Below are positions 128-61,801 of a DNA stretch of 64,000 bases, piece after piece. Numbering within the stretch: position 1 is the stretch's first letter; each line of letters opens with the position of its first letter. The translations under genes and the position numbers were made by a program. Location of the stretch: contig CAJINV010000009.1 in assembly GCA_905178155.1 (NCBI GenBank), forward strand, positions 3,027,471-3,091,470, given 5' to 3'. Below the pieces are notes generated by a model. The model made no database searches and was not told the origin of the DNA. It saw nothing but the letters and a program-made list of their open reading frames with translations. Source of the stretch: Amoebophrya sp. A120 (lineage: Eukaryota; Protista; Dinoflagellata).

Positions 128-3100
128 TTGCGTCGTGCTTCGTTTTCACGGCGCAGTTGCTCTTTGTCGTGTCGGTTTCCGCTATCAAATGTAAAAATGT
201 CTGGGTCTGGAAGATTCCGAGATTTGTCATGCACATTTTGCATGACTCCTGATGTCTGTGATGCATGCCCTAGCATCAGAAATTTTTTGCGAGCTTTCTG
301 ATGCGTATCCAGCATGACAAATGCCCTCATCGTGTAGCACAAAATCGAATCCTCTTGTTAGTCATGCACCACAGATTTTCTTAGAATCCGAAGACAGCAT
401 CAGAAGTTGAATCCTTCCCGACCCAGACATTTTTACATTTGATATCCGCGGTGACAAAGCAAAAAGCGTTGCAGGTCGAGTATCGCCTCCTCAGCTGTTA
501 CTCTCCTAGCTGTTGCGTACCCGACAGCGTTTTTCATAGCAACCCAGCAAGAGAAAAGCGAGATGCGCTGCTCCGTTCGCATGACAAGTTTTGGACAGAT
601 TTCGATGTTATTCGAGGCATCTCAAATTTGTGATGCGAAGCTACATGAAAACTGGAAAAGTGACGCAGATTTTGCATGACAAACGTGTTGGCTACGTAGA
701 AGTTGAGAGCGTAGCACCTGAGGAAGCCATATCGAGTTTTTCGCACACCAGTCGAGACACCCATCGCACTATGCATTGCAAATATGTCTGGGTTTGGAAC
801 TCTGCAACTTGTGGTGCTAAATCTGAATATTGCAAAAATCTGTGCTGCATGATTACCAAATGCTGTCCACTTTTGATCAAGTTGAGAGGCAGTTTCTCAT
901 GCAGGGTAGGCATGAGAGGGATCTCGCGGAATCTGTCATGCTGGGTCCTCCATTGCAGATCATATGGGTCATGGAAAACCTACATGACAAGTCAAAGTCT
1001 AGCAGTTTTCCAGACCCAGACATATTTGTAGTTGATACGAACGTGATGTGCCCCGGCACGCGGCCGTACGTTCCGGTGGAGAGCAAATCATTTCCCGAGG
1101 CGATTTATGCAATTTGCAAGAGCAGTATCGTGCTGGTGCTCGTAGTAAATTGCATTTACAATTTTTTTCAACAAAACGACAAATCAAATTTGTAATGCGC
1201 TTTCAGGTCAGGAGCCGGATCTCGATCTGTCATGCTCATGCATGACTGCAATTACTCCACCGAGTACAACTTCTACACTCTTGCAATGCGTACGTCCTGC
1301 TCGACCAGGTGCAGACACTCGGAGTCGCGCAGCCTCAAATTTTGCACCTTATCAAATGCGAACATGTCTGGGTCTGGAAGAATGCAAGTTTGTCATGCTT
1401 GTCTCACATGACTCTCAAATCTGGCATGCACATTACCCAAGAGCCCCACTTTTCTGTCATGCAGCAACGCAGTTTGTCATGCAGCATAGGCAACACCTAG
1501 AAGCTCAGAAACTTGTCATGCTGAGCCAGCACTTGTGGTCTCCTCATGATACGCCACCCAGCATCACAAGTTTCCAGACCCAGACACTTTTGCAGTTGAT
1601 ACACCTGCGAGACCAGCAGCTCCTCACGGGGGCCGGGGAACCTGGCGAACCTATCCCACGAAAAAACTGTTTCACTGTGATGATTTTGCAAGATCTGCAT
1701 CACAAGTTTGCTACAAATGACAGAGAAAATTTGCCATGCGCGCTTCCTAAGGGAAAACACAGCTAAAAATCCAATGTCTTGCATGTGTAGCAAGACAAAT
1801 AGTTCTGTGTTACATTCTATGCATCACAAGTTCACAGTGAAACAGTTTTTTCTTGCGATAGAACCGGGAGTCAGAGTAATCGACAATGCCGTGTTATCCA
1901 GGGAAAAAACTGTGTTGGTGTAGGTCTCTTGGACGACCAGCATTACAAATTTACCCTGCACGAGAGAGAAAGCCTGTCATGCAATGCTAGTACGTGAAAA
2001 CACACATGAAAAGAGGACTTCATGGGTGTCTGGCATGACAAGTGTAACTGTTTTGCATTTTTTGCATCACAGACTTACACTTACACAGTTTTTTTCGTTG
2101 CATACGTGGATGACGGCGTTGGTGAAGTCGGTCGCTGCCAGAGCGTATCAAATGCAAAAATGACTGGGTCTGGGAGGATGGAACTTGTCATGCTAAATCT
2201 GCATCATGCAAAAATCTGTGTTGCATGATTACCACAAGTCGTCCAGTTTTGACCAAGTCGGGAGGGAGTTTCTCATGCACGATAGGCACGATAGAGATCG
2301 CACACAATCTGTCATGCTAGGTACTGCATTCCAGACCTCGTGGGTCATGGACAAGCTGCATGACAAACTTGCATTCTTCCAGACCCAGACACTTTTGCGT
2401 TTGCTAGAGCGGTAAACTGGTCACTGACGGTCGCCGCGAATTCCATTTCTAACTTCCCGGAGAAAGCGACCGAAACGGTACTCGTCGTGGTCGTGCTGGT
2501 TGTCATGGGAACAAACTTTTCGAACGAAGTGACTTGGTAGGCTGGCACCACGTATGCAGTGCAAATATGTCCTCTGGGTCTGGAAACCTGTGATGCTTAT
2601 TTGCTGCTGATTGCAACGCTTGCAATGGCAGCCAAGCATGACGAGTTTTTGAAACGGTTCTTTGAAACGCTTTCTGATGTCTAGCACGCATTACCACTTG
2701 CGTTTTTGCATGACTACAAAGGAAGTGGCTCTGCTGCTGCTCGTCACGCAACACAGATGTTCTAGGAATTATGCAAGACACGTATTACAAGTTCCACTTT
2801 TCCAGACCCAGACATATTTGCAATTGATACCACGTACTCAAAATGTCGCACCAGCCAGTCGTACATCCCGTTTGTTTCACTGTTCAGCGCTGCGGTGAAC
2901 ACCCCGGGCATCCTGAGCAAAAACGCCCCCACCCGAAAGTCAAGATGGTGATGGGGATTTTGCTACACAAATCAGCAAGTTTTGCGTGTTGCGCATGACA
3001 AGTGTAGTGCAGTCCTCTTTTGGTTTTGGGTAGTGAAACCGCATGACAAATCGGGTACCTAATCCTGATTCTAGCATGACAAGCTACCCGATAGCATTAG

Positions 3101-6100
3101 AAAATGGCCCTCATGGGACTGCGCATGAGAAACATTTTATTTTTAGGCATGCCAATTCGCATGACAAGTCGGGGGTGGGGAAGTTTTTACACAGGATACC
3201 GGGGGCCCCGGTGGCGGGTGCGGTCGACCAGATCTCCTTCAGTGCGTGCGGTTGGTCCCAATACACCCAGTTTTCCGGGGCCACGGTGAATTTCATATGG
3301 AAGCGTCAGGATTGAAATCGACAACAAAGTTGAAATAATATTAATTTCTCATGCATAACTTGCAAGGCATGAAGTGCCTCTCTTGCAGGGATGGCAAGCG
3401 AGGCCGACTGGCAGCCTGTTTCAGGTCTGCGATAGAGCTGCTAACGTAGCATGACAAAAGACGCCTTCTATCCCTAAGCAGCATGACAAACTGGATTCAG
3501 ATGGTGCCGAAATTTGTCATGCACCGCTTGAAAATTGGGCTGCCGACTGGTGTCGATTTTATGCATGACAAACTACCAGCCATGCTCCGGCTGCCGCCGG
3601 AGCGCAAGGCTGTTGGGCCGGGGCAAGACTGTGCGCCGATTGGACCACAACACCACGGGCCTGCGCACAACGCAACGTATTGGAGTCCTGCCGCCTGTTT
3701 GCGCCGCGCCGACCCGCAGGACCACTTGCGCGCCTCCCGCGCCTTTGGGCGCTCTGCGCAGGGAGCAGCTGCAAAGAACACCGGGGGCGAACAGAAGCCG
3801 CCCGGCGCGAGAGGGTAGCGCGAGGGGGTAGCGCGAGAGGGTAGCGCGAGAGGGTGGCGCGAGAGGGTGACGCGAGAGGGTGCGCGAGAGGGTGGCACGG
3901 AAAGACGCCGAACAAAACAAGTCCGTAAGGGCCTGCAGTTCGAGATATGGGTAGCGCCATGCGGATTCGCGCCTATTTCTTGCTGTTTTTACCTCCTCGC
4001 AGACCTCTCGCAGTCCCTCTTTTTGACCTCTTTTTGGGGTCCCCGCTAATACTCCGGCTATACTCGCGGGTAGAGGTCGACAGAGGTGGCCGAGAGGTGG
4101 CCAAGAGGGTCCGCGGGAGGTCGCCCCTTATTCGCGCAACCTCTCGGCACCTCTGTCCACCTCTCGCCTGCCCTCTTTTCTACCTCTCGGCACCCTCCGA
4201 GGCGCTTAGCGGCCCTAAAGGGCGAGCGGTTCGGCTGGCTATACTCGCGCCACCTCTCGCGCACCCTCTCGAACTGCCTCCCGCGCCACCTCTCCACCTC
4301 TGTCGACCTCTTTTTCACCTCTTTTGACCTCTTTTTTACCTCCCGGCCACCTCTCGTTCACCCTCTCTAGACCAATATTTTCGCATGAATATAATAGATA
4401 GTAATTTCAACTTTGACGATTTCAATTCTGACACTCCCATATTTCAGTCTCAACTCGTAGTACCAGTTTTCTTTGGCATCCGTCACCTGCGTCTGCGCCG
4501 CCTGTCTGTTCAGCGTGAGGCCCAAATCCTTGAACTGGTCCTGCCGCAAATTATCGTTGGTCCTCAAATCGGCAACGTTCCCCGAGGCTATGCATTGCAA
4601 ATATCGATCTGGTGTTTTGGATGGGTACGAGTCTATCATGCGTGTAGTCTCGTCACGTGACAACTCTTAGCTCTGTGATGCATGTTGAGCAGGAAAAGGG
4701 CCTCTTGCCTGTCATGCAAAAACGCAGTTTGCCATGCGAAAACGAAACACATAGTAGCTCAAAACCTTGTCATGCGTGGCTGCGTATTGCAGTGCGCTTA
4801 AGATTGATTCGCACCAGATTTGCATCACAACTTTCCAGACACCCAGACAAATTTGCGGTCGGTAGAGGCCGCGAGAGTGCAACACACCGGCTTCCCGTTC
4901 GCGCAGTACTTGCTTGCGTCATTCTCCTGCTGCCAACAACGAAAGGCGTCCGAAAATATGCAATACAAACTTCCCGTACGTGTACAAGATGCATAACAAA
5001 TTTCTCCAATTTGAAGTCTATACACTTGTCATGCTAAACCAGGACTGAAGCTAAGTTTTGTCATGCAGAAACACCATTTGTACGTTTACGGGACGACATT
5101 TACTGTGCATAGAAAAAACCTGCAACGCATGGCGCAGGGCGTTGTGCTATCCTTTGTAAAAACATCCCCACCCCAGAGTTGTAATGCAAATGCGCAATGA
5201 CAGGAACATTTGTAATGCGCATCCCCATGAGAGGTATTTCCAATCGTGATTTGGCATTTGTAATGCTGTAAACAGGATGAGAAATTGGCTTTCTCATGCG
5301 GCTTGCCTTGCTATGCGCCACTATACTACAGACGGAAACTTGTCATGCACAACTCCCAAAGCTTGCCGATTTGTCTAGGAGATTTCCCATCTTGACTCTG
5401 GTGTGGGGACGTTTTTACTCAGGATATGTGCAGGACTGAGTTGCCCAGGATTTCTCCGATCTTCGCGTCGTCGTCCACCTCCGCCCCGGTGAGGCCGCGG
5501 AACTGCACCAACACGGGGAGGTCCGCGGGGATGTGTTTTTGATAGCTAGTATCAAAAGGAAAAATCCCCCCTCCCCATATCGAAAACGAACTTTGTGCTG
5601 CTGTATTTGAGTACGCCTTGTATTGCTAGAAGGCCAAGAGCCGCGGTCGTGGCCTTGCTTGCAGGCAATTTGACATGCTGTTTCCCACTTCCAGCTGCCT
5701 CCTGTCATGCTGAAAAAGCAAGGCTTTCTCCCGCCCCCCAGCACTACAGTCCGCATCTTTTCCCTTCTAGCATGACAGAGCTGATTTGTGATCACAAATC
5801 TGCGTCACAGATTTCCGTTTTGATGTCGGGAGGGGGGATTTTTCTTCTTGATAGCTAGACCGCCAGAGCTCGTAGATCATCGCGTTCTTCGGCTTCTTCC
5901 CCCCCGTGACAGATATGGAAAGAAAAAAGTTTGTCACAGTCACTCACTAGCTTGGAGGTTTTGCATTACAAATTTTTTCATCACAGCTTTGCCGTGTATT
6001 GCAAAAACACTAAGGGAAATCCCGCATGCAGTTTGGCTGTGAAGATGCATGTTTACGCATGACAGGCATTTTTTGTATTGCAAAAATGCCCATAAGTGAT

Positions 6101-9100
6101 CGCGACGAACTTTTTTCTCTTGATAGCAGACGTTACGACTCTACTGCCACAATAACTCCACCAGGAATTCCATTTTTCACTGCAAGCCGGGTTAGTGTTT
6201 ATCTTCGAGTAGCGAACCTTTTCATTGTATCCTCAGTAAAAACGTCCCCACACCAGAGTCAAGATGGGAAATTTTTTTTATTTTTTTTTGCCTGCGGGAG
6301 GGGATTTCAGTTTCAGATGCGTTTTCCGGTCTATTTCCGCCGGGGGTTACGCCGTGTACAGCAGGTCGACACTGCCAGGAAACTCGATGTGCGCGCCGCA
6401 TTGGTCCATACAAATCAAAACCCAAAACCCTAAACCCTTCAGTTTCAGTTTCATGGAGCGGCCCCGTGCTGGAACACTTCTGATGGTGGACGTGAGCACG
6501 AGATTTGCGGCTTCGCGCCGCGACAACCAAATGGGGGTCTCTTCCCCCCCCCCTCCGCTTTCGAAAATCCCGTTTGTGCGTGCATACTGCAAAAGGTCGA
6601 CATCGGTGGTCGACAGGAAATCGAGATCAAGCTCGAATCGAAGGCACCGGCCACAAAAGAAGATAAGACGAAAATCATCGGGGAGGATCGGAAGACCGCA
6701 ATTTGTGATGCCTGTGGCTGCTAAAACCCGAACGGCATGGGGGTAGCTACCACGCCGAGCGCGCGGATTCGTTTTCCTTTACGTGTCGAGCCGGTAGCAG
6801 CGGCACACGCCACATCTCTTCCATCTTGCAGCGTCCGGACGGATGTGTTGGGGGGCATAGCAGTGCGGGGGGATACTAATGTACTGCGGCTTTGCAGGGC
6901 CGGAATTTGTCATGCAAAATTTGTTTTTCGGATAGTGCAAACGAACTTTTTTACTAGAGCTAACAAGTCACCGCGTCACGCCTAGGTGACACCTACCGGC
7001 TATTTAGTAACTGCGCCGCCTGAATCGGTTTGCTATGTACTGACCCGGTAGCAGCGGGCGGAAGTTCTTTTTCTAGGAAACTACACCGGCAGCTTTGTGC
7101 AGATACCGCAGATAGCCAGCAGGGCGCCGCTAGTAAAACCACTAAATTTTAACTATTTTGTCATGCAAAATTGGATAAGATGGAACTTGTAGGGCAAGAG
7201 CTGCGGAACCAACCGGGGCGAAATCTCGACTATCAGCAGCGGCGAGTTATATGTCGTCGCGGTCGAGGATGTCTTGCACGGGATCGGCAGTATTCGAGGC
7301 TGAAAATCGGCGTGTGGGGTGGAGGAACTTGAAGATGGATTTCCTTTCTTGGGAGACGCGGCAGGCTCGGGTGTACTCGGCGGAGAAAGGGTCTGCAAGA
7401 TGTCGAAGTACAACAGCACACCGGGGAAGTGCAGCAACAGCGTATTTGTCTGATCGTCCGTTGCGGGGGGCAGCTGGCTCCCGTGCAGGTCCGGTGGTGT
7501 GGATTGTACAGCTGCTGCACCGGCCCGCAAGTGCCGGATTGCTGGCGAGAAGAGGTAAAGGGACAGCATGGCGAGCCCCCAAACGCGGCCCGGCTCCGGT
7601 CCGGGCAAGTAAAACTCCGGTTGCTCCCAGGGCGGCAGTGTGGACCCGATACGCCGGGAGGTCTGGTAGCGACGGAAACTGGCGCCAGGTGGGGATTCCC
7701 GTTCTGCGAATGCATAAACAGGGCTAGCAGCTGGTTTGGCGGTGTTGGTGCCCTGTACACCGGTTTTCTGGCCAGTAGCCGCGATTCGCGCAGAACAGAC
7801 CGAAATTCTTTTTGTAGCTCCGTATTCACCGGCCACCGCGATGCACTTGTCTCCGGTGAAACTGGCAGCTGCCGCTTCGGGGTCACCTCCACGTCATCAG
7901 GATCCGGTCGGGCCGGAGTACTATGGATCGAAAAACCGAACGGGGAAATTCATATTTGAAATCAAGGTGAGGAAAAGACCGAAAACACCGCCGGCGAGCA
8001 AGCTCTTCCGCGGTGCTTTTAGTTTTACGGTGCTATAGTGTGATTTTGTTTTGGTATTTGCTTTTATGGTCCAACCCGGACCTGAAATCAAAACCCGGAC
8101 CCGAAGCCGAGACTCGGACCCGAAACCGAAACCCGTACTCGAACCGTGGGCCCGAAATCCGGACCCGAAACTTCGGACACTACCTAGAAGAGGGCATACC
8201 GTCCTAAGTGCAACTACGTTTTCGTACCGGGAGAGAGCGACAAAGACAGATCCAAACGCAGGCGTACAGCCGGGGGAAAAGAAGGATGCCTCTATACACG
8301 GCTACCCGCATGCAAAAATAAGGGAAAAGGAAAAGTGTATTCACGCAAAACGGTTGGCACCCACCTTGAGTATGTCTTCCTACTGATAAGCGGAGACGAA
8401 GATAGGTAGAATTCTTGCCGCTAGAATTCTACCTTTGGTATTTATTTCTTAGTCCTGACATACATACCTGATTAGCAACCAAGAGATCGCACTTCGCCGA
8501 AGGCTAGTGCCACGGTTGTAGCATACATATCTGCGCATACATGTCATACAAGAAACAGTAAAGGACTGATTAAAACAAATACCAATCTCAGTCTCCCACA
8601 TACCTGTAGGGCGCGGTTGCCTCACCTTCTGGAAATCTGCGGTTGAGTCAAGATGGGAAATCTGCTAGACAAATCAACCACTTTTGTTTGTTTGGCATGA
8701 CATCAAGTTTGTCCCCGTATTGTCATCCTGTTTAGCTAGTTCCGAAGCATCACAGATCTAGCGCATCATGCTGATTCTAGCATCACAAATTCCGAAACAC
8801 GACTAGAAAATGGCTCTCATTGGGCTCCGCATCATCATCATCATCATCATCATGTAGTGGACACCCGCACCCAGCGCCACAGGTCAAGGATCCCCTCCCC
8901 GGGGGGTGGGCGAGGAAGCACATTCGGCGACCTCCGCATGAGAAACTTTTTGGGCATGCAGATGTGCATGACAACTCTGGAGAGGGGACGTTTCTACTCA
9001 GAATACATTGTACCACGAGTAAACCTATCAAGTGCAAAAATGTCTGGGTCTGGAAGATTTTGAGATTTGTCATGCCTGTCTAGCATGACCAAAAAGTTTG

Positions 9101-14790: not shown

Positions 14791-16169
14791 TCCGACCGGC
14801 CAATGTCTCGTATGCAGCGGACCAAGACGAAAGGGGAAACCGACTGGAGCTCCGGTGCTTTTTTTACGTTCCAATTTTACTTTTCACCAGCACGGTAATA
14901 CTGCCTCTCCGTCTCTTGCCGGCACGTTCACGTTGTAGATAGTCCTGCTGACGCGGTCAAGAAAGAGAACGTCGCACGGCGTGATACAGACGCACTACGG
15001 ATTTTCAAACTTCATTCTGGCCCCGCAGCTGGCCGTCCCCGCCCTGCAGTGGGATCTCCTCTGTCCCCGTACTTTCGACGACCCGCCCCGTCCCGAGATG
15101 TGCAACAAGTGCCCCAAGAACGGCAGCTCATGGTCATTGCACACGCATAGAAGAGTGACGGTGTTCGTGCAGCGGCAGTGGCAGTCAGCATGATTTTTGA
15201 CTCCTGTACTCTACTTCTAAACTCTAGACAAAATATTCGCAGCTTGCGCTGCGCTTGAGGGTTGAAAACCCTCCCTCAACGTAAAGTCGATCAGATTTCT
15301 CGTTTCTCTAGGAAAGAAAAAGAGAAAGTGACGCTGTGAGACCCAGAAGTCAATGGATTCCGCTCGGGAAAGGTCGTTTAAGGTTTCCCGGGAAACCTTC
15401 GGCTTAGCTCGTGCTAAAGTGTGTTGCAATACATTGCAATACAACCGAAAAGGCGGCGCGCGCATGGACTCCGCTGCTGTTTGTGTACACAACCGCGCCG
15501 CGTCTGTGTTGGCGTCTCGTGTGCTTAAATCGCCACAGTCGGCTGCGGATTGCGAGCAACCTGGCGGCCCCGGCAAACCGGCGCACATTTTCCACAGAGG
15601 ACTCCGGAGAGGATTCCAAAATCCTCTCCGGAATCCTCTGGCCCAAGTTGAGCCGTCTTTCGCGCCCTTTCCCCGACGGCACTACCTCGATTTCGGGAAC
15701 AGGGGGCTTCGAAGATGATGCGCACACCATCATCTTCGTCCCCGTGCTGTTTGCCGCCGGATTTGGGGGCGCGGCAAACCGGCGCACATTTTGCGCGGAC
15801 TTTGCCTCGCGGACTTTCTGGCCCAATTTGGACCGCCTCGGACGGCCTTTCCCCGATCAGGCGGAGGGGCCGGGGCGGTGGTGGCTGCTACATCGCTTCT
15901 AAATTTTGCGGGATTTTTCAGAAACGGCCTTCCCGGGGAATATGCGGACGGCGCCTCAATTGAAAAGGGGCGAGAAGGAAAAAGGCAAAGACGAAATGGG
16001 GAACACAGAGGCAAATGGTGTGGGACCGAGGAAAAGAAGACATAGGAGAAACTCCGGCGCGGCCCCCTACGCACTGCGGGTGGGGAAAAACCCGGAGAAG
16101 CGTCGCGGGGTGGGGAGAAGCAAATCATGGGGCCGATTTCGCAGACGAGGTGGGCACCTGCCCAAAAGC

Positions 16170-16412
16170 GCTCTAAATGGCACTCTAAATGGGGGTGCTA
16201 AATGGGGGCTCTAAATCGACCCCTTCTAAATGGGGGTGCTAAATGGGGGCTCTAAATCGAGCCCTTCTAAATGGGGGTGCTAAATGGGGGCTCTAAATGC
16301 ACCCCTCTAAATGGGGGTGCTAAATGGGGGTGCTAAATGGGGGCTCTAAATACCCCTCTATCTGGCATGCTAAATCAGCACGCTAAGTCGCATGCTAAAT
16401 CAGCATGCTAAA
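16170..16412. repeat. CTAAATGGGGG(T)G minisatellite with ~39-bp higher-order period
   Basis: Repeated ctaaatgggggtgctaaatgggggctctaaatcga units. Confidence 0.9.
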
Positions 16413-48364: not shown

Positions 48365-51300
48365 TCACGGCAGCGCGTCTCTATCAAAGTGAAAAAAGTC
48401 CCTACCCCAAATCGGAAACGGAAGATGCGCGAATTTGTGATGCTGTATTTGAGTACACAAATCGACTTGTATTGCTAGAAGGCCAAGAGACGAAGCTGCG
48501 GCCTAAATTGCAGGCAGTCTGTCATGCTGTTTCCCACTTCCAGATGCCTCCTGTCATCCTGGAGCTGCAAGGCTTTCCTACGCTAGGCAGCACTACAGTC
48601 CGCATCTTTTGCCTTCTAGCATCACAAAGCTGATTTCTGACCCCAAATCTGCATCACAGATTTCCGTTTTGATATGGGGAGGGGGCATTTTTCATTGTAA
48701 TAGTCTCGGAAGCAGGTCATGATTTTCGACCCTTCGACGCCCGTCAGGGTCGCGTATCATTTGTAAAAGCGTCCCCATACCAGAGTCAAGATGGGGATTT
48801 TGCAACACAAACCTTGAAGTTTTGGGACCCACACATGACAAATTGCTGGCTATATTGTAGTGCAGTTTAGCAAGGAAAGCCGCATAACAAATCCATCTGC
48901 TTATCCTGTTTACAGCATTACAAGTTCCAAAACACAATGGTAAATACTTACCTCTCATGGGGATGCGCATTACAAGCGCTCTTGTGCTTACAGATCTGCA
49001 TGACAACTCTGGGGCGGGATGTTGTTTTTACACAGGATATCGCGTGACACACGGTCAGTGTCAACATCGCCGACGTTTTGTCGTCCTGTAGTCGCCCGAC
49101 GCCCAGAATCCCGGTGGTGGCTTTTGGCAGCACCGGGATCATATCAAATGCAAAAATGTCTGGGTCTGGAAGGTTCTGAGACTTGTCATGTTTTGCATGA
49201 CCCAGGATGTTTGTAATGCGCGACCTAGCATCACAGCTTTCTAGAGGGCTTCCTGATGCCTACTCCGCATGACAAACGCCCTCCACGCGTAGCACAAACT
49301 TCTAGACTCCTCTTGCTGGTCATGCAATACAGATTTTTTTAGAGTCCAAAGTTAGCATCACAAGTTCTAACCTTCCAGACCCAGACATGGTTGCATTTGA
49401 TAAATCACCATCTGCGGCGCGTCCTTGCCCAGGCTGGAAACAGTGAAGCTATGCATTGCAAAAGTATCGCAAGAATCTTCGTAGTCCTCCTTGCATTACA
49501 AATTTTCTCAGCATGACGAGAAATAAAATTTGTAATGCTGGTTTGGCTAAGGAAGGGCACTTGTCATGCATGATTGCAATGATCACTACGAGCACGATAC
49601 ACTTTTGCACTGGATAGAAGCACACCTTCGACAGGTCCTGGTCTTCCGCCGGCAACTTGGCGCCGAGGGCAACCATGCGGGCTAAGTCGTCCTTGATTTC
49701 TATCCTAAGCAAAAACGTCCCCACCCCATAGTCGAGTTGGGAATCTAGCAAGACAAGTCTCCAAGTTTTGGGAGCGGCGCATGACAAGTTTCCGTCTGCA
49801 TTATAGTGCTGGTTGGCAAGGGAAGCCGCACGAGAAAGCAATTTTCTCATCGTGTTTACAGCATTACAAATTCCAAAACGCGATTGGTAATGCCTCTCAT
49901 GGAGCTGCGCATTACAAATGTTCCTGTCACTGCACATTTGCATGACAACTCTGGGGTGGGGACGTTTTTCCTCAGAATAATTTCGGTCAAAGATTTGCCG
50001 TAGGCGTCCTTGATCACCGCGGTCCTGAGCTGTCCCGCGACGTCAATGGCGCATGCAAGAAAAAACTGTTATGTGTAAGTTTGTGATGCACAAAATGCAA
50101 AACAGTCACACTTGTCATGCCAAACACACAACATGAAGCTCTCTTTTCATCATGCGTGTTTTCACGTACTAGCTGAGCATGACAAACTTTCTCTGTCAAC
50201 ATGCGGAGGAAGTTTGTCATGCTGTCACTCCAAGACTCCTTTACACCAACACTTTTCTTTCTTGCATATGGCGCAGCCGATGTTCACCGTATCGTGGTAA
50301 ATCATTTCCTCGCGGTTTTTGCTCAGCCGGTGGTTCATGCCGGAGTGTTGTGCCGCCTCCGCCATCGCCTTGATTAAAACGATCACTGGGGAAACACCTG
50401 TTGTAGAGGTTTGTACGTCATGGATTCTAGTCTATTTTCCAGTACAAATAAGTTCTTTTCCAAAAATCACAAGAACATGCATATTCATCATGCTGACAGG
50501 TTATAGTACTGGCTCGCAATCAATATACATCACATCCTAGTCGTACAGTACTAGATACTATCAAGTGAAAAAATGTCTGGGTCTGGAAACTTGTGATGCT
50601 GAGTGGCGTAGCATGAGGAGGCCACAAGTGCTGGCTCAGCATGACAAGTTTCTGAGCTTGTAGGTGTTGCCTATTCTGCATGACAAACTGCGTCTCCGCA
50701 TGACAGAAAAAAACGTCTCTTGGGCAATGTGCATGACAGATTTAAGAGTCATGCCAGACAAGCATGACAAACATGGATTCTTCCAGACCCAAACATTTTT
50801 ACATTTGATATATACCTTCGCTCTTCGCCTTCGTGATGATCTTTTTGAAGTCCACCGTCTCCGCTATCAAATGCAACTAGGTCTGAGTCTGGAAACTTGT
50901 AATGCTGAACGATCATCATGATTGAGCAGTGCGCAGCGCCTTTATGCGCAGTGAAGCATGACGAATTCTTCTTTCTCATGGGTAGCACGCATTACAAACT
51001 GCGATTTATTTGCATGACGGAAATAATGTAGTGCTTGTTTATTTGTTGCTCATGCAATACAGATTTTTGAGGAATGCGACACACACAACACAGGTTCAAA
51101 CTTTCCAGACCCTGACATTATCTTTGCAATGCATATCCACCAGGAAGAAGCAGTTCGTGTCCAAATTTCCAACGCTCTACGAATTGCAAAAATGTCTGGG
51201 TCTGGAAGATTGCAACTTGTGATGCTGTCTTTAGATTCCAAAAAAGTCTGTGCTGCATGACCAGCAAAAGGAGTCCAGTTTGTGCTGCGCGGAGAGGGCA

Positions 51301-54300
51301 TTTCTCATGCGGAATACGCACCAGAAAGCCCTCCCAAAATCTGTGATGCTAGGCCATGCATTACAGGCATCACGTGTCATGCAAAATGTGCATGACAAAC
51401 CTGGCACTCTTCCAGACCCAGACACTTTTGCATTTGATACGCTCATGTTTTTCACCATAGCCTGTTGGAAGCGCGACAGTTTTCGCCTTCCCCCGTCCCC
51501 AACGGACGACTTCCTGGCGAATTTGCCACTGGCACTCTGCGCCGGCGTCGGGGCACCGGCTGCCGGGGCGGGTGTGGAAGCCGCCGGCGCGGGGGTAGAC
51601 GCGGCCGCCGCGGGAGCTGCTGCGGGAGCACTGCCCATCGCTTGCACGCTGCAGATGTTGGTCTCGTCGCCCGTAACATTGATTTCCTTGTTCTCTTCCA
51701 CAAAGTATGAACCGCAAAAGTATTTTACTAGTAGTAATTGCAATACTTACAAATGAGCTCAGCATGACAAATGGAATTTGTCATGCTGTTTGGAATTGGG
51801 ATAGAGATTTGTAACGCATGGCTGCGATTACTACGAGTACGATACTTTTGCACAGGATACAAAGTACTCCTTCACAACTCCATCCACAGGCGAAGTGATC
51901 TCAATGGTTGCCTTGTCGGATTCGACCTCGCAAATCAGCTCGTCGGCCTTCACCGAGTCGCCAATCTGCTATCGTATGGAAAAACGTCCCCACACCATAG
52001 TCGAGATGGGGAATCGGCTAGACAAATCCACAAGTTTTGGCTGTTTTATTGCCACTGTACTCGTACTGTAGTGCTGTTTGAGGTAATTCAGCAGCATCAC
52101 AGATCTAGTATATCATGCTGATTGGAGCATGGAAAATTCCAAAACACGACTAGAAGAAAATGCTTCTCATGGGGCTCCGCATGAGAAGCATTTTGACCAT
52201 GCAGATTTGCAGGGGTGGGGACGGTTTTAAATACGATATCTGCTTCACAAATTTCACGTAAACACCCTCCCCGTCCATCGGTGCCTGCACCATTTCCAAT
52301 TTTCCGGTTGCCGCGGCGGCAGAAGGCGCGGCCGCCGGCGTAGCGGCTGGCGCGGCAGCGGCGGGAGCCTAGAGAGTAAGACGTTTGGATTCGTAAAAGG
52401 ACAATCCAGACATTGCCGAATGGCATAAAGTTCAAGTATGCAATACGTAAAAGAAGTGCTTTGAATAAAATCTGTGCCACAAAATATTGGAATTGTCCTG
52501 TGTTAAAAAAAATCATAAGTACCGCGCCCGCCGGCTTAACCGAGCAGATCTTGGTCTCGTCCCCCGTGACATCAAATGCAAAAATATCTGGGTCTGGAAA
52601 CTTGTGATGCAAGTCAGCCAATAATTAGCCTACTGCAATGCGCCGCCAAGCATGGCAAGTTTTTTCGTGCTTCTGTGCTTCGTATTCCGCATGAGAAACT
52701 GCGTTTTTGCATGACAGGCAAGAGGTGCTCTTTGCGGCCACGCAATACAGAGCTCAGAGTCATGCCAGACTAGCATGACAAAGCCCGAAATCATCCAACC
52801 CCAGACATTTTTGCAGTTGTTACGTGACATCCATTTCCTTCTGCTCTGCCACGAAAATTTCTTCGATCACCCCATTAATCGGACTTGTGATCTTATCACA
52901 AGAAAAAAGCGTTACAGTTACACATTTGTTGTAACTTCAGCAACACAAATTTTCTCTGCATCAGAGGAAAAAACTTGCAATGCACAGGCCATAGTGGAAA
53001 ACACGTATGAAATGAAGCTCGGAAGCATTTCTGGCATGACAGAGCTTGTCTGTAGTGCTGAGCTCGCAACACAATGTGTATTAAGTGTGACACTTTTTTT
53101 TCATGATAGATCTCGATGGTAGCTTTATCCGACTCCACCTCGGCGATGATCTCGTCGGCCTTCACGCTGTCGTATCCTGTGTAAAAACGTCCCCACCCTA
53201 GAGTTGCAATGCAAATCTGCATGCCAAAAGAGTCTCTCATGCGGAGCCCCACGAGAACGCTTTCTAGTCGTGCTTTGGCGTTTGTGGTGCTAGAATCAGC
53301 ATGATATGCTGGATCTGTGTTGCTGCTGAACTAGCTAAACAGGAAAACACCACGAGGGCAAACTCGTCATGCGAAACAGCCAAAGCTGGCCGATTTGTCT
53401 AGCAGATTTCCCATCTTGACTCTGTTGTGGGAACATTCTTATTCAGGATACGTCACCCACCTTCTTCTGAAAGGAGATGTAGACGCCTTCGCCATCCATC
53501 GGTGCAAACACCGTCTCCGTCGCCCCACCGCTGGCGCCTGACGCCGGGGCGGCCGAGCCCGCGGCCGGCGCCGCGGCGCGGGACTTGACGCGCTTGATCA
53601 TGGAGAGATCCGGGACGCCCTCGATAACTTTATCAACTGCAAAAATGTCTCCTGGGTCTGGAAACTTGTGATGCGAAAATATGAATGATGGAAACAATTC
53701 CGGATGCAGCCCAGCATGACAACTTTCCAGAGCGCTTTCGGATAGGAACTCCGCATGAGAAACTGCGTTTTCGCATGAAAAAAGAAGCTGCGGCTTTTGT
53801 TGGTATATGCAATACAGATTTCTTAGCAATGGAACGCTAGCATTGCAAGTTCCACTCTTCCAGACCCAGACATATTTGCAATCCATAAACTTGCCGGTAA
53901 AACAGCGTGTTGTAGATGTCCTTCTCCTGGATCAACGGGTCGCCCAGCCCGTAGGGTACATAGGCGTTTTGGATGGTGCACTCACTGAAAAACAGGTCGT
54001 CCGGGTACTTGATTCTGCGCCGGTATGGACTGTAAATGTGTCTGGGTCTGGAAGAATGCAAGTTTATCATGCTTGTCTCACATGCCCCTCGAATCTGTAA
54101 TGCAGGAGCAGGAAAAAAAGCCTATTGCCTGCCATGGAAAAATGCAGTTTGCCATGCGGAAAGCGAAACATATACATAGGAGCTCAAAAACTTGTCATGC
54201 GTAGCTACGTATTGCAGTCGTGTGCCCACCATTCACAAACTGGCATCACAAGTTTCCAGACCCAGACATATATTTGCATTTGATAGCCGGATGCTGGACA

Positions 54301-57300
54301 CCACCGGGGACATAAGCGCGGAGTTCGGGTTCGGGTCCACCACAATCACCTCCGTTGCCACGTATGCATTGCAAATATGTCTGGGTCTGGAAGGTTGGAA
54401 CTTGTAACGCAGGTTCTCCATGACCCATGAGGTCTGGAATGCGGGACCTAGCATGACAGAGTCTGTGAGGTCTCTGACACTGACTCTGTCATGCCTCTCC
54501 TGCATGAGAAACTCCCTCCACCCAACTTGGTCGAAAGTGGGCAGCCTTTGGCACTCATGCAACACAGATTTCTGCATGATTCGGACTTAGCATGACAAGT
54601 TGCAATCCTCCAGACCCAGACATTTTTGCATTTGATACCACGCCCTTGGTCGCAAGGTCATCCAGGTAATTGACCTAGTTTATTTGGAGTTTTCGGTAAG
54701 CTGCATACGCTTTTTTTGCTATTGCTATCGCCAGCAACGGGATTATTTGTCTTGCTCTGTTTACATGAGAGGTTCTTGCGCTTCTATTCTACAAATGTGC
54801 ATCACAAGTTTTTCGCTCAAAATCCATCTTATCTATCAGTACTCCAAACCATTACCAGAGCATTCGGTGCCCGATTGTAGTTCAACACGATGAGCTCGCA
54901 GTTCAGGTTCTCTTGCGATTATGCAACACAAATCCACTGTCTGGATCTGACTTTCTGATGCTGGAACTGAATTCAAAAATAAAAGCACCTGTAGTAATCA
55001 ATGTGCGAATTATAATGGACCTGTGGATAATTTCAATTTGTCATGCCAAGCCTCCCAGACAGTAAATACATGATTCGCATTCTTTCTTGCATAGCATCAA
55101 GACCTTCGCGATCATTTTGCAGTCGGGACCCCAGCCGATCATGATCAGCTTCTTTCCGTTCATCGGCTCCAGCGTACCGGGCACCTGCACCTTAAAGTAG
55201 TCGTTCACTTGCATCCCCGTGGCCTGCTTGTGCTCCGGCAGCGGGAGTATCGGGTGCAGCATGCCGAAGCTCATGGTGGGCGCGTATCCTGAGCAAAAAC
55301 GTCCCCGCCCCAGAGTTGTCATGCTAAACAAAATGCGACGCGCTTTTCTCATGCGAAGCCCCATGAGAAGCATTTTCTAGTCGCGTTGTGGAATTTGTGA
55401 TGCTAGAATCAGCATGATAGTCTAGATCTGTGACGCTGCTGAACTACCTAAACAGGATCACACTACGAGGAGAAACCTGTCATGCGAAACAACCACAGCT
55501 GGTTGATTTGTCTAGCAGATTTCCCATCTTGACTCTGGTGTGGGGACGTTTTTACTCAGGATAGCGCGACCCCCAAAACCATGCGCCCCATGTCGTGGAG
55601 CCGGACCATCTCCTGCATGCAGTTCGACAACACGTTCATGTCGATCGGCAGACACATCACAGTGTTGGCGTCGCCGGCAAAACTGCTGTACTCCGGCGTG
55701 TTGTGGTGCTCCCCGACGCGGGCCAGGAACATATCCCGCTCCGTCTCCTCGTTTGTTTCGGCGTCGATAACTTTCTCCTTCTCACGGAAAGCCAAGGAAC
55801 CGCCGTCGAAGATGTAGATGTGGTTCGCGTGCTCTATGCATTGCAAATACGTTTCGGTCTGGACGAGCACACTGGTTTGTCATGCATTTTCTGAAATAGA
55901 TACATGCTCTGGAATGCACGCGAAGCATTACAGGTTTATTTGCGAACGCCTTTTCATGCCTATCCTGCATGAGAAACTCGCCATTTGTGTGGCAAAAAGT
56001 GGGCAGCGTTTCTTGGCACTCATGCAATACAGGTTTTTCTCTGCTCGAGATTTAGCATCACAAGCTGCAGCACTCTTCCAGACCCAGACTTGATATTTGC
56101 ATGGGATATGCTCGCCAGCATCGCAATACCGGTAGGCGGCGTACTTGATGTGATCGCGTGCGTGCTCGTTAAAGATGGTGTGGGGACCTGTGGTGAAAAG
56201 CAATAAAAGGTTTTTCTCCTTTACAGAAACCTCCGCGCGGCGATCCTTCGAATGACAAAAATGGTGCCCGAACTGCGATCTAGAAGTAGAACTAGAAGCA
56301 CGTCGAGCTATGTATAATGCAAGTTCAACATTATTAATTTCACACGTTGACCGTAGAACAACACTATCACTATGCTTTCTTCTAATCATACCTTTCACAA
56401 ACACCCGGTTCCCGGATGGCAGCACCGATCTGTACGCTGCCCCAACCTGCACGACCTGCGCTTCCTGCGGCATGAAACCAACAAATTTGTCCGCGTGCTC
56501 GGGGCCGATAGCCTTATGGAAGCGTCGGGATCGAAATCAACGAAATCGAAATAATTTGTGATGCATAAAATCGATACCAGTTGACGCCTCAGCTTCCAAA
56601 TGGCGCATGACAAATTTCGGGAGCACCGAAATCCAGTCTGTCATGCCGTTTGGGCAAAGAAGACTACGCCTGTCGTGCTGCTCTGGCAGCGCATCGCGTT
56701 CCCCGTAACAGGCTTGCGCATCGGTCTCATTTGCCTGCTCCCCAGCACAGGCGCAGGCCTTGCGTGCCCTCCAGCTCCATTTTATGCATTACAGATTTTT
56801 CGATTTTGTCGATTTCGATCCTGACACTCCCATAAGCCTGGAGCTCGCCATACACGCCGCCGCGGGTGTCGTGCTGCCCTTTGTGGTGGTTTTCTTGGTG
56901 CACGTAGTATCAAGAAGAAAAATCCCCCCTCCCCATATCAAAACGAAACTTCTCATGCTGGATTTGCGTACACACATCAGCCCTGTCGTGCAGTAGAGGA
57001 CTGCAGGCCCACATCAAGCCTGAGTGGGAGAGGTCTTGGCCTAGGCGCTCAGCATGACAAAAGTCCATGCTGTACTAGGCCCGACAGCATCACATCCCGC
57101 CGGTGTAGTCCGGGGGCCTTCTGGGTTCGCCTTCTTGCAAGACAGACGCGATGTGTGGCCACAAATCAGCATCACAAATTTCCGAAAATGTACCTTTTTG
57201 GTATGGGAAGGGGGGGATTTTTCCTTTTGATACGTAGCGGACCATCTTGCCCTCTTTGTCCGCAATGTCCATCTGATTCTGAATCGCCTTGCTGTAGATC

Positions 57301-60300
57301 TCGGACCCCATACCTTTGGTAATCGTATATAATTTTGTCGCATTTTCATCACGACCCGATAAATTATTACGTTACACAAATTTCATCAAAGCTCGACTCG
57401 TCACGAAGACGCCGATCAGGGTCGAAGATATTAGTCCTTTTGCTTTTTCCCTGCTTCGAAGCATCCATAATATTAAGTAAGTACCTGCGAACTTTTTCTG
57501 TCCCTTGCCGAGCAGATAGTTGATGTCCAAATCCACCGCCTCGCCCCCCTCTTCCTTCAACACGGTGGTGGACCCCGGCTGCGAAAGTTCGCGCACCTGC
57601 TCGCGGCGTATGCATTGCAAACATGTCTGGGCGGTCTAGGAAGTTGGCATGCTAATCCCCCCCATGAGAAACGAACCTCAGTACCTAGCCAAGCATGACA
57701 ACTTGTTTGGAGGCTTGCGAAGTGCGTATGGAGCATGAGAAGTTGTGGCCTTGCAAGACAAACCTTCTGGTTCTGGCTCTCATCTTCTTCATGCATCACA
57801 GATTTTTGCTTCTTCATTTAAACTGCGCATATACAGGTTCACCCTCTACTTCCGGACCCAGACATATTTGCATTGCATACGGCTCATCACCTTGCAGCCT
57901 CGGATGGCGTGCTCGACGTGGCCCACGATGGAATCTTCCGCCTGCTGAATCTCTATCAAAATGAAAAATCCCCACTCCCCATATCAAAATGGAAATTTCT
58001 GATGCTGATTTGCGTACACACTTGTCTTGCAGTACGGCACTCCGGCCAGATCCGCAGCCTAGGTGGGAGCGCTCAGGTCTAGCTGTTCAGCATTGCAAAC
58101 GGCTACCCTCTAGGACCAACAGCATGCCAAATCGCTTCACAATTGGGCGGATGCCTCTGCACTTGTCTTCTTGCAAGACAAACCTGCTTTGTGGTCACAA
58201 ATCAGCAATACAAATTTTCGGAAACATATCTTTTCAATATGAGGAGGGGGGATGCTTCCTCTCAATAATCTTCGCCACCAGTTCCGACCCAGACATACCC
58301 TTCGGGGCGGCGCACGCCAGCTGGTAGATCATGACGTTCTTGTACTTTTCAAACTGGTCCAACAGCATCTCCTCCGGCGCGGGGTTCTGGTCGCTTGCGT
58401 GGCCCCCCGGACGGAACGGCCACCGGGAAATCACGTAGGTTGGCCTCCCGGTCTCCAGCACCTGGTCGCAGGCTTTTTTCATGGCGTCAATGCCGCTGTT
58501 CATGTCGTGCGCCCAGGTCTCGAATCCCTTGTCGATCAGATTACTCCACAATTCAAACCGCTTGTATCCCAACAAAAAAGTGCTACAGTTAGTACACATT
58601 TGTTCTTCTTCTTGCAACTTCAGCAACACAAACTTGCTCTGCATTACAGAGAAAACTTGCAATGCAGAGATCCTGAGGGACAACACGTATGAAACGAGGC
58701 TCACAAGCCTTTCCGGCATGATGTCGTGCGCGTTCCGCAACACTGTATACACTTTTTTCTTTGCATAGCTCGTGGATGCGCTTGACTCCGTACTCTCCGA
58801 GGTCGCCGTACTTCCCTCCGTAGTCAAAACGGGCGGGGTATCAAGGTGAAAAAAGCCCCCACCCCATACTCAGAAGACAATTTGTGTTGCTGGATTCCTG
58901 TACACAAATAGGCTTTGTATTGCAGCAAGAGCTTGTAGGGATATCATAAACCCATTTGGGTACGCATCCGGCTGGCAGCTGCGCATGAGAAACAAGTCTT
59001 GCATAGGCGAAAACGCATGACAGACTGGCTGCACCATGCGCGACATTATGGGTGCCGTTTGCATTGTACGCAAGACAAAGTCGATTTGTGGTCACAAATC
59101 AGCATCACAAACTCCTTTTCGATATGGGGAGGGGAGATTTTTCCTCACAATACGGAGATGGCCGAGTTATTGGCGTTGATCAGGAAAATCATCGGCATTT
59201 TGTAGCCCTGCTCCCGTGCCTCCGCGAAGTGCTGCAAGGCGTGCATGGCGCCGTCCGTAAAGAACCCCGTGTCGCCCGTGTTCAGAATCGTCACTGGGGC
59301 CTCCATGTTCTCCTTTCCCATGCAGTACAGCTTATCAAGTGCAAACATGTTGGGTCTGGAAAAGTGCAAACTTCTCATGCATATTTTCCATACCCCATGA
59401 GGTTTGGAATGCAGGATCTAGCATGACAGGTTCTGCGACGTCTCTTCTATCATGCCTATCCTGCATGACAAACTGCCTCTAAACTTGTTCAAAAGTGGAC
59501 AGCTTTTGGTAGTCATGCAACACAAATTTTTGTACGATCCAGCCTTAGCATGACAAGTTCGCGTCCTCCCAGACCCAGACATATTTCCCATGCAGTACAG
59601 CTTGGCGGCCTGCAACTCCGTGTCCCGGCCCAAATCCGTGGACCCCGCTCCGATGTGGCTGTCGCACGGGTAGAAGGTGCGGACCATCGGGTTGAAAATT
59701 AGCGGGTCCTTGTTGTCCTGCCCGGACCAGTACTGGAGGTAAAACTGCTTCGCCACCAGTTCGTAGACCTTCTCCGGGCTGTACCCCATCCGGAAGAGCT
59801 CCTCGGAGATGATAGGGGTTATGGAAGTGCCAGACTCGAAATTGACAAAGTCGAAAAATTCTTTGTCGTGCATAAAATCGATACCAGTTGGAGCCTCAGT
59901 TTGTAACAGTGGCGCATGACAAATTTCGGAGCACCCAAATCCAGTCTGTCATGCTGTTTGGGCAAAGAAGACTGCGCCTGTTATGCTACTCTGGCAGCAC
60001 ATTGCATACCCCTAAACAGGCTCACAATCGGTCTCATTTGCCTGCTCCGCAATACAGGCCTCCAGTGCCCTACATTTTACGCACCACAAATTTTTCGACT
60101 TTGTCGATTTCGATCCTGACACATTCATAGGGGTGCGGTAGTAGGTAATAATTTTCATGACCTCGTCGATTTTCTGCGCCGAGGGTTTCTTGGCCATCAA
60201 GTGGTTGCCCACACCGGCCCACATATGCGAATACACCGCAGAACCGAACAAAGGAATATGAATTGCAAAAATGTGTGGGTCTGGAACGTTGGAACTTGTG

Positions 60301-61801
60301 ATGCTATCTTTGGACTGTGAAAAAAAATTATATTGCATGACCAGCAAGAGGAGTACAGTTTGTGCTACGCTGGGAGGGGATTCCTCATGCGGAATAGGCA
60401 TCAGGAAGCCCGCGCAAAATCTCTGATGCTAGGGCATGCATCACAGACCTCATGGGCCACGCAAAATATGCATGACAAACTCCTGTAATCTTCCAGACCC
60501 AGACATTTTTGCAATCCATAAGGAAGGCCGAAACACGACTTGTCAAAATGGGTGTGCACCGCCTTCGGGAAAATCAGGTTCGCGAGTAGGGAATGCTGTT
60601 TTAGTAGATTTTCATTTTTTGTTCCACCATTTCATGCGGATCGATGATGATGATGAACTTAGCTTGCTGACAGAAGTCAGGATGTTTGTCATGCACGAGG
60701 ACTACAACACACAGCTATAAGAAAATCGCCAAACATCAAATTCGGTACCAAATAAGCATCCTTTTCCCCCTCCGACAGGAGTGGAAGGCTCCCGTTCCCG
60801 GGCAGACTATCCATTTTGCCGATCTCATGCTTGTATGCAATGCAAAAGCATCGTACTAGTATATATAAATTGCAATACAAATTAGTCCTGCATTACAAAT
60901 TAAATTTGTAATGCTGATTTATCTTGAGAAACAGATTTGGAATGCATAAGTGCGATTACTACGAGCACTACGATACTTTTGCACAGGATAGCTTGATCTG
61001 CTCCAGCGACTCGCTGTAGAGACCCACTATGGGAAGAAAAAAGTGTTACAGTGACGCCTTGTGGTCTTGCAAAACCGGCGACACAGACAACCTTTCTCAT
61101 GCAGGAAATGCTTTGGAGCCTCGTTTCCTTCCTGTTTTCCCTTATAACTTGTGCATTGCAAGTTTTCTGCTCTGTTATGCGGAGAAAACTTGTGATGCTG
61201 AAGTTGCAGCAAGGGTGGAACTGTAACACTTTCTTCGTGGGATACCCACCGGCTTTCGGATATTCTTGATAAAGTCCGCCTTGGAAAGTGTTGGACAGTA
61301 TGAAAAGGAAAAAAAAGTTCGTGTCTTGATCAGAAAATCTTCCTCTTTGAACGCATTTGCATAATACTTCTTTTCAACATACACGACTAATTACACCAAG
61401 GGCCCGGACAAAACACGCACAGGAGTGGTCATACTCAATCATAATCTTACTTGTTAGCCATGCATTCTCACAGCATGAATTTTCGGTGGCAAGACACGTG
61501 CGAAAATAAATGATTTCGTCTTGCATAAGTGCTCAAAAGTTTCCAGTTCCGGTTTCAAATCGAAGCCGGAAAAGTGACGCACTTGCACTTGTGGTCTACC
61601 GTGGCCGCTTCTCTGGAGACCCTCCACGCGGCGGCCATTAATATGCCCTGGAACAAACAGTCTGGTCGTGCTCGACGAACTGAAGCCGGCGACTGAAGTT
61701 GCGGCAGCGGGAGAAAAACTGCGGAGCCTGCTAGAACTTTCTCTTTGCTGGAGTGCAGCGCGCCGGGCAAAGCCGGCGGTCACTACCGTGGTGCTTGCCA
61801 T
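48365..61801 (-). CDS. 2-oxoacid dehydrogenase E1alpha-E1beta-(lipoyl)2-E2 fusion protein, probably mitochondrion-targeted; about 30 introners plus several GT-AG introns
   Basis: Spliced motifs in order: Ser/Arg/Ala-rich N-terminus; TPP motif GDTG...NANNSAIS; FRPGGHASD; HQENH...RGGVY; two EVESDKATIEITSP lipoyl domains with Ala/Pro linkers; LSRFQQAMVKNM; NIGCAIDV...LRTAVIKDA; FTVSSLG; ILGVGR; LTLTVCHATLTG; stop at 48365-48367. Confidence 0.85.
50398..50815 (-). other. Canonical GT-AG intron containing an introner (50559-50810)
   Basis: GAAG|gtata ... aacag|GTGTT joins to ...KSEGVSPVIV. Confidence 0.65.
52369..52522 (-). other. Canonical GT-AG intron
   Basis: GCG|gtactt ... ctctag|GCT joins in frame to ...PAGAAPAAA. 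Confidence 0.7.
56188..56391 (-). other. Canonical GT-AG intron
   Basis: AAAG|gtatga ... cacag|GTCCC joins to ...VFVKGPHTIF. Confidence 0.75.
57314..57484 (-). other. Canonical GT-AG intron
   Basis: GCAG|gtactt ... caaag|GTATG joins to ...KKFAGMGSEIY. Confidence 0.75.

Follow-up and report, generated by a model that had tools for sequence, protein, structure and literature searches.

The window analysed here, a stretch of 64,000 nucleotides from Amoebophrya sp. A120, contains 87 catalogued elements with terminal inverted repeats (TIRs) between positions 183 and 61244, 85 of which are 150–650 bp in size and two of which are long. They begin with TAT, end with ATA and are flanked by a 5-bp target-site duplication, and 81 of the 87 were called blind to the internal motif discussed below (of the six added manually, three were added with motif matches in view). 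The two long elements are a 1146-bp element (3296..4441), which has the TIR type of the element at 56515..56834 and a relative in L022 and in which no transposase was recognised, and a 2778-bp element (6228..9005) with the ends of the 279-bp family, a perfect duplication and interior ORFs of 208–246 aa for which no identity was found. The minus-strand gene at 47536..62185, which is spanned by a single 5.3-kb transcript contig, hosts 31 elements (one within a canonical intron) in addition to canonical introns, and reads open for at least 1183 codons after removal. Its product contains a lipoyl domain by Pfam match. The canonical GT-AG introns of this strand include one seen in transcripts at 54675..54855 (one exact motif at 54799, no TIR), two that lack the motif, at 56188..56391 and 57314..57484, and one known from the gene-model prediction only, at 60596..60748, with an exact motif at 60686.

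Together with a second assembly, in which element detection permitted at most one mismatch in the 5-bp duplication, the window yields a set of 17 families and 461 elements. All families share a 15-nt end, roughly TAT-S-N4-G-N-AAAAA, and a duplication that is perfect in 366 of the 461 elements and is 5 bp in length, as the sixth base on either side matches at chance level (112 and 102 of 461). Because this end consensus and this duplication are common to all families, the ends probably share an ancestor. The bodies are a different matter: with TIRs and motif sites masked, they fall into 12 non-aligning groups at z≥6 (nine at z≥4), although several families are related to each other. This bears out the original prediction that the bodies are otherwise unrelated, and the families do not all align as descendants of one ancestor with neutral decay. 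Insertions favour GC-rich DNA, flanks below 47% GC accounting for 4.6% of element flanks versus 34% of the background. Both orientations relative to coding occur in all 11 families with at least three coding calls and reliable orientation, including the 279-bp family (8 insertions one way and 6 the other in coding DNA), and the TIRs form a terminal hairpin in either orientation (z −8.4 and −7.7). A single doubtful pair of orthologous insertions was found between the window and the second data set.

The central finding of this study is that these families carry one internal motif in a fixed geometry. The window has 172 exact matches (101 GCATNACAA and 71 TTGTNATGC), 168 of which lie inside the catalogued elements (27.8 kb), against four in the remaining 35.6 kb. 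The 85 short elements alone have 158, versus 1.8 (maximum 5) in 30 dinucleotide shuffles, and the intronless ORFs of the window (8.9 kb) have none, which confirms the predicted enrichment in elements and scarcity elsewhere. De novo discovery with gapped k-mers recovered GCAT.ACA in 17/17 family consensuses. The exact 9-mer proposed as common to all is present in 16 of the 17 consensuses but absent from 11 of the 85 short elements; the real site is degenerate, about WGCAW[GCT]ACARRT. The expectation that every family would carry the motif in both orientations did not hold up, since both exact orientations occur in only 36 of the 85 short elements and the 279-bp family is one-stranded (exact sites 78 versus 0, degenerate sites 124 versus 2). 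Neither are the motif and TAT/ATA the sole shared features, for the 15-nt end, the 5-bp duplication and the pair geometry are likewise common to all families. We found no earlier report of this motif in the literature searched, and none by title among the matches listed.

The geometry is precise. A same-strand pair of motifs 31–33 bp apart is found in 17/17 families (null mean 3.5, maximum 10 of 5000), with 27 such pairs versus 3.8 expected, and the spacers between paired sites do not align (identity 0.37 versus 0.31 when shuffled). Exact or intact pairs are exemplified by a 311-bp family element at 29314..29624 (29357/29389, 32 bp apart, the first site 43 bp from the tip), by a 279-bp family element with a one-stranded motif at 31632..31910 (31840/31871, 31 bp apart, the last site 31 bp from the tip) and by a member of the 150–167-bp family at 49450..49616 (49530/49561, 31 bp apart). 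Spacing to the termini is also regular: the outermost outward-facing sites cluster 31–33, 41–43 and about 53 bp from the tip, as in the element of the commonest TIR group (TCTGGGTCTGGAA) at 183..444, which has a perfect 5-bp duplication and an outward site 41 bp from its left tip, and tip distances are phased (R=0.65 at 10.5 bp, n=52 ends). One motif and one pair spacing are thus common to 9–12 non-aligning body lineages with at least seven TIR types, and both the pair geometry and the tip phasing would suit a protein bound to double-stranded DNA.

Conservation tells a similar story. Mismatch is 0.064 in the motif core and 0.205 in the neighbouring body, the core being better kept in 11/11 families and better conserved than the TIR columns taken as a whole; the extra conservation foreseen in the original prediction is therefore present. 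Hypermutation at CpG was considered as a cause of this gap and does not explain it. Because the core surpasses the neighbouring body in conservation and the pair spacing is fixed, a single trans-acting binder, as originally proposed, is well supported by the sequence comparison. Changes shared with a near neighbour amount to 0.017 in the core versus 0.138 elsewhere, copy-private changes to 0.030 versus 0.073, and indels per 100 bp of pair spacer to 0.11 versus 0.20 when shared and 0.47 versus 0.42 when private. Drift after insertion, estimated from duplication mismatches (73 versus 305 elements), is 0.023–0.046 per site, a range within which the private core rate falls. Inherited changes therefore avoid the core while private ones erode sites and spacing, and 11 of the 31 elements of the transcript-backed host gene lack an intact pair (5 of the 31 lack an exact motif), which makes it most likely that the motif serves transposition.

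Removal of the elements takes place in transcripts and not in DNA. Transcript contigs skip each element together with one copy of the duplication, whereas DNA contigs retain the elements: at the seven element joints of transcript runs X5 and X7, the depth in X2 and X3 is 0, contigs of X1 and X2 pass through elements at flank depth, and depth in the transcript runs is near zero inside several elements. The search for the joined form in DNA covered contigs of one sample. None of the runs listed as containing the host gene is on record as RNA, and a raw RNA run, X9, was uninformative, as just 10 of its reads fell on the host gene. Exactly one duplication copy is always lost regardless of its sequence, in-frame read-through being obtained at 161 of 390 junctions for this length and at 2–4 for other lengths, and only 12 of 187 elements could be cut as GT-AG, versus 4.3% expected. 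Codon likelihoods gave no signal as to the cut position inside the duplication. Template switching by reverse transcriptase is unlikely to be the sole source of the joints, since the reading frames need removal and depth inside several elements is near zero. In the host gene, two 279-bp family elements lie in opposite orientations. For the forward one (49701..49979, pair 49909/49940), the length of the transcript and the open frame lead us to infer removal together with 5 nt; for the other (55285..55563), the transcript joint runs from 55279 to 55564 (279+5 nt skipped). A one-stranded family is hence removed both ways, which contradicts the idea that a two-strand layout of the motif explains orientation independence. 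Three elements without an intact pair are directly observed to be skipped, namely 54024..54285 (267 nt), 54920..55093, an old eroded element with a diverged duplication (179 nt; of the sense-upstream duplication copy, the transcript retains the first 3 bases or more), and 56515..56834, of a further TIR type (325 nt). The proposal that the motif licenses removal is accordingly not supported: pair-less elements are skipped, private spacer indels are not depleted and DNA keeps the elements. Since every transcript-backed element retains at least two degenerate sites, removal may yet require the motif in a redundant way.

We consider it probable that the motif is the sub-terminal and internal binding site of one transposition machine mobilising all these non-autonomous introner families in trans. 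This machine is likely a transposase of integrase type, similar to that of IS3EU/GingerRoot, or a DNA-binding partner of it. The protein would occupy a pair of sites that lie three turns apart on the same helix face, and would set a catalytic subunit on the TAT tip, 3–5 turns away. Only copies with intact sites would found new ones, so that unrelated bodies would keep or converge on one geometry, and the sites would decay once a copy has inserted. For removal from RNA, the main requirement would be the TIR hairpin, which forms in either orientation, rather than the motif. Our search for the enzyme covered, by Pfam, the longest 100 of the 122 ORFs in the loci and found no transposase there, no autonomous element among the long TIR pairs examined, and neither of these in viral contigs searched with three patterns. 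Farhat et al. likewise did not find a DNA transposase in A120 (PMC7789003). A120 family 38 has been annotated as Ginger, with a 5-bp TSD, TA/TA termini and integrase-like ORF homology. Nothing ties the motif to the window's intronless paralogous ORFs, whose products were considered as its possible binder.

A host protein, possibly a domesticated transposase, might instead bind the motif pair on duplex DNA and mark the stretch for co-transcriptional removal, replacing U1 snRNA, which was not detected in Amoebophrya; elements would then have spread in exons because they carry the mark. We regard this as rather doubtful, although a signal on double-stranded DNA would fit orientation independence and several observations point the same way. 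Outside element-like DNA, the second assembly has 72 exact matches versus a mean of 12 (maximum 36) for 200 permuted 9-mers, and 10 degenerate pairs at 31–33 bp occur outside elements versus 1.5 per 3-nt bin elsewhere. GCAT.ACA is present in 12 of 78 predicted GT-AG introns (14 sites versus 2.3 shuffled, two as pairs), and for this reason a host factor may yet license removal. That GT-AG introns lacking TIRs contain the motif, and pairs of it, also weighs against the transposition reading. The other 66 predicted canonical introns lack the motif, however, and its density in canonical introns is 1 per kb versus 12 per kb in elements; some motif-bearing introns contain element remnants, and IR/DR are found in 15% of A120 canonical introns (Farhat et al., PMC7789003). 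Private changes in the core reach 0.4 of the rate in the body, which would allow for some constraint after insertion, and by the duplication-mismatch clock the core rises less (0.007) than the body (0.018), a difference that is not significant. Against this, private indels break the spacing freely and elements lacking a pair are skipped nonetheless, and exonic and non-exonic copies show no difference, the core/rest ratio being 1.07-fold in a comparison of low power (95% 0.49–2.12; 211 versus 30 copies). An apparent three-fold effect in one of three versions of this comparison rested on four elements, mostly one, and was discarded. In its boldest form, which we think unlikely, a host or domesticated DNA-binding protein would read the three-turn pair on chromatin, define introns on DNA independently of strand and splice-site sequence and replace U1; it would also serve some GT-AG introns, and any element bearing the pair would become a cleanly removed intron.

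The remaining explanations are far less probable. Programmed DNA excision directed by the motif, as for ciliate IESs, with transcripts made from excised templates, would account for the exact loss of one duplication copy in frame and for the rarity of GT-AG solutions, but is very improbable given the zero depth of the seven joints and the contigs that run through elements; as these come from one DNA sample, rare or stage-specific excision is possible. There is scarcely any likelihood that the motif acts in pre-mRNA, either read by an RNA-binding protein or through copies pairing together to drive splicing. Removal does occur at the RNA level, and degenerate sites lie on both strands in 363 of 461 elements; yet the 279-bp family, removed in both orientations with its sites on one strand, presents opposite words in RNA, the terminal hairpin already forms both ways and three-turn spacing suits duplex DNA. 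It is just as implausible that the motif was simply inherited from one ancestral element and has no binder today: the shared ends and duplication and the related families are compatible with this, but a core with three-fold higher conservation than the body in every family compared, surpassing even the TIR columns as a whole, and a spacing maintained around unalignable spacers are not.

In the available parts of published accounts, introner movement without a recognised transposase and removal without splice sites or detected U1 are open questions. A shared, spaced motif means that many introner families likely depend on one machine, for the isolation of which the pair offers a precise bait with mutant controls, and it provides a signature for finding the autonomous element and old element-derived introns. 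Were the binder a host factor needed for removal, it would represent a novel mode of intron definition.

The elements have the properties of A120 introners (Farhat et al. 2021, PMC7789003; Gozashti et al. 2025, PMC12130899), which likewise have an IR starting with TAT followed by an A tract, a short direct repeat, non-canonical borders, RNA-supported removal and size classes of about 150, 210, 255–260, 280, 305–320 and 1150–1190 bp. Here, the IR is TAT, about seven variable nt and at least three A, the direct repeat at the borders is 5 bp (3–5 nt in A120 introners), and 17 repeated families are removed from transcripts at non-canonical sites. The accessible portions of those accounts describe only terminal IR/DR motifs and families that are diverse or of unknown superfamily, and mention no internal motif common to families, 31–33-bp pairing or tip phasing. 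IS3EU/GingerRoot elements, which are defined by TA..TA ends (PMC10045372), share with ours these termini, TIRs and a GC-rich target preference (PMC10045372, PMC6839031, PMC12730594), but their duplication is usually 6 bp rather than 5 bp, and the integrase-related DDE transposase of their autonomous partner was not seen here in the ORFs and long TIR pairs examined. In the parts of these sources available, no sub-terminal motif is reported ("subterminal" has 0 matches in PMC6839031). Euglenid and Fritillaria non-conventional introns (PMC11282704) are also TIR-bearing, transposon-derived and non GT-AG, with TSD-like repeats, but have border consensuses, whereas the borders here have no sequence signature and an entire duplication copy is removed with the element. 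The joined form characteristic of IES-like elimination is absent from DNA contigs (one sample, seven joints), and the strand of the motif is not fixed relative to transcription, unlike that of a spliceosomal RNA signal. The closest parallel for the motif is with the sub-terminal repeats that transposases bind in Emigrant/Lemi1 (PMC1636448) and Hermes (PMC10368747), which are likewise short sites repeated internally to the TIRs, occur in either orientation and differ between the two ends; here too, the motif is conserved in transposing lineages. Unlike in Emigrant and Hermes, the motif and its pair spacing, with binding putative, span non-aligning bodies and at least seven TIR types.

The minus-strand genes of the window, whose DNA is eukaryotic, are broken every 50–300 bp by elements with terminal inverted repeats (TIRs), and our main finding is that the motif inside these elements is a real, apparently unreported cis-element. 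The introners themselves are already known. Their ends (TAT, variable bases, an A tract) and 5-bp target duplication agree with the A120 introner elements in the available part of PMC7789003, and their size classes with the A120 rows of PMC12130899 (40 of the 58 in the supplement compared). Searching for TAT…ATA ends, similar arms and direct repeats at the flanks, blind to the motif, identified 81 elements; another six placed by hand bring the catalogue to 87, and one chance match was discarded. Family analysis used 83, excluding the two long elements and all but one of three identical tandem copies at 26040–28360 (766-bp unit, each with a 646-bp element and an inner inverted repeat), which are either a recent duplication or an assembly artefact. 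A second data set came from searching metagenome contigs that share an accession prefix for the TIR pattern (158 loci, 704 kb; 11 of 64 parts covered). It added 378 unique elements belonging to window families, with a bias toward the TIR group that served as bait. The resulting 461 elements form 17 families and 43 singletons or pairs. The original prediction called these families otherwise unrelated, which holds for their bodies, since these fall into 9–12 non-aligning groups once ends and sites are masked, but not for their termini: all families have a 15-nt end in common, as well as the 5-bp duplication. In family alignments, length changes are skewed toward insertions (+3 and +6 or more bases).

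The motif is concentrated in the elements, which hold 168 of its 172 exact matches in the window; the 85 short elements contain 158, against 1.8 after shuffling, and the 8.9 kb of intronless ORFs in the window none. It is the top shared gapped word in 17/17 family consensuses, widening to about WGCAW[GCT]ACARRT; later site counts use a degenerate pattern fixed post hoc from inspected data. What is new relative to the original prediction is the pair geometry. Every family (17/17) has at least one same-strand pair of sites 31–33 bp apart, a range picked post hoc from the observed peak, whereas random placement gives 3.5 families (maximum 10 in 5000 trials); the 43 unassigned elements supply 13 further pairs. 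Spacer identity is barely above chance (0.37 vs 0.31 for shuffles). From the tip to the outermost outward-facing site the distance is 31–33, 41–43 or about 53 bp, with a periodicity of R=0.65 at 10.5 bp over 52 partly dependent ends, periods of 10–11 being about equally good. Because these distances equal three, four and five helical turns, they indicate, we infer, a protein that contacts a single face of the DNA duplex, its position fixed relative to the tip.

Transcript-like contigs, putative RNA (labelled "RNA?") from which GT-AG introns are missing as well, omit every element together with exactly 5 nt. This is observed directly at seven joints, and for the rest of the 5.3-kb transcript it is deduced from lengths and from the open frame, which runs for 1183 codons; DNA-like runs continue through the elements and contain no such joints. 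Keeping one duplication leaves 161 of 390 junctions in both data sets confidently in frame, against 2–4 for frame-shifting lengths, under a codon model tuned assuming the 5-nt loss. A GT-AG cut is possible for only 12 of 187 elements, near the 4.3% chance level. Families are inserted in either orientation; the original prediction held that a two-strand arrangement of the motif would explain orientation independence. The 279-bp family, with sites confined to one strand, is nevertheless removed in both orientations within one gene, which is evidence against that explanation and against a signal in the RNA strand; its terminal hairpin, which folds in either orientation, also opposes the latter.

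The product of the transcript-backed gene (47536–62185, minus strand), read from a single transcript, exceeds 1180 aa and includes two lipoyl-like repeats, of which Pfam confirms one; by resemblance it would be a fused 2-oxoacid dehydrogenase E1/E2-like chain, its other domains being putative. At 50398–50815 an element sits exactly at a canonical intron donor, the GT falling inside its duplication. Among 161 calls for coding insertions, mainly in the loci, 86 put the first duplication base at codon position three (12/34 in the window alone, 13/27 in this gene). In the window and loci L001–L068, elements strongly avoid AT-rich DNA: flanks below 47% GC make up 4.6% of 370 insertions, compared with 34% for DNA free of elements. 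Predicted exons contain 315 of these 370 insertions.

The original prediction's proposed check of per-column conservation bore out the motif: its core is better kept than the body in 11/11 families with at least eight copies (mismatch to consensus 0.064 for core, 0.099 for TIR, 0.205 for body). Changes shared with a near-neighbour copy are eightfold rarer in the core, private ones only 2.5-fold; likewise, private indels are equally frequent in pair spacers and other intervals, and shared indels are halved in spacers. Duplication mismatches (73 vs 305) amount to roughly 0.046 per site for the two copies together and therefore put post-insertion drift at an estimated 0.023–0.046, bracketing the private core rate of 0.030. 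Of the 461 elements, 148 have no intact pair; for the transcript-backed gene the figure is 11 of 31. Since the core is spared mainly in shared changes, private core change runs close to drift and many elements lack a pair, the data fit selection on the motif at transposition and decay thereafter. Against this, private changes include unsampled transposing lineages and the private/shared split is imperfect, a redundant requirement would stay hidden with 4–6 sites per element, and the comparison of exonic with non-exonic elements has little power.

That the motif is instead an intron-marking site bound by a host factor seems to us less likely, and is kept alive by its occurrence elsewhere. The second data set has 72 exact matches beyond any element-alignable DNA, sixfold the permuted controls; the 31–33-bp peak persists among them, and a recognisable TIR and duplication surround only five. 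A simple gene model, which recovered 5/5 of the canonical introns known for its test gene and is noisy elsewhere, yielded 78 strict predicted GT-AG introns free of element remains; 12 carry the motif, on either strand, two as pairs, and the model's exons show no excess. The simplest reading is that these introns are relics of old elements, now ordinary introns, which agrees with the available part of PMC7789003, where inverted- and direct-repeat motifs are reported for 15% of canonical introns in A120. Pairs at 31–33 bp with no clear TIR also occur in short GT-AG-like introns of five loci (L008 ~2200–2310, L029 3347–3494, L030 ~5920–6030, L061 4569–4742 and L032 ~15790–15907).

Among the intronless ORFs of the window are three on the minus strand. 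Two are paralogous (23701–25167 and 36627–38624; 35–38% identical) and have no Pfam match of their own; their N-terminal repeat of ~60 aa is present in some 2400 library proteins, its top relative hitting Pfam INT_rpt, and their C-terminal region has one other full-length relative among the best 150 matches. For the third (19458–22973; 1171 codons), Pfam gives nothing significant and the loci contain no relative. GC-rich tandem repeat arrays (15900–19000 and 38640–39530) flank the ORF blocks, and a segment near 38390–38460 recurs near 39525–39600. At L019 2625–6080, two neighbouring ORFs match a C-5 cytosine DNA methylase, one its N-terminal part and the other its C-terminal part.

The motif and its spacing go unmentioned in the accessible texts of PMC7789003 (supplementary figures aside), PMC12130899, PMC10045372, PMC12730594 and PMC6839031, in that of the review PMC11282704 and in literature searches; subscription papers, e.g. 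Roy et al. 2023, could show the motif. According to the available parts of PMC10045372, PMC12730594 and PMC6839031, TA..TA ends mark IS3EU/GingerRoot, whose duplications are usually 6 bp. Among the A120 families, one bears a Ginger-like annotation, a 5-bp TSD and TA/TA termini (accessible part of PMC12130899). Because no transposase was found among long TIR pairs or by Pfam in the 100 longest of 122 long ORFs in the loci, we do not class the elements as members; they behave like IS3EU/GingerRoot-dependent MITEs. On balance we favor the motif sites as candidate transposase docking sites, sub-terminal repeats bound by transposase being established for Emigrant/Lemi1 and Hermes in the portions available of PMC1636448 and PMC10368747, respectively.
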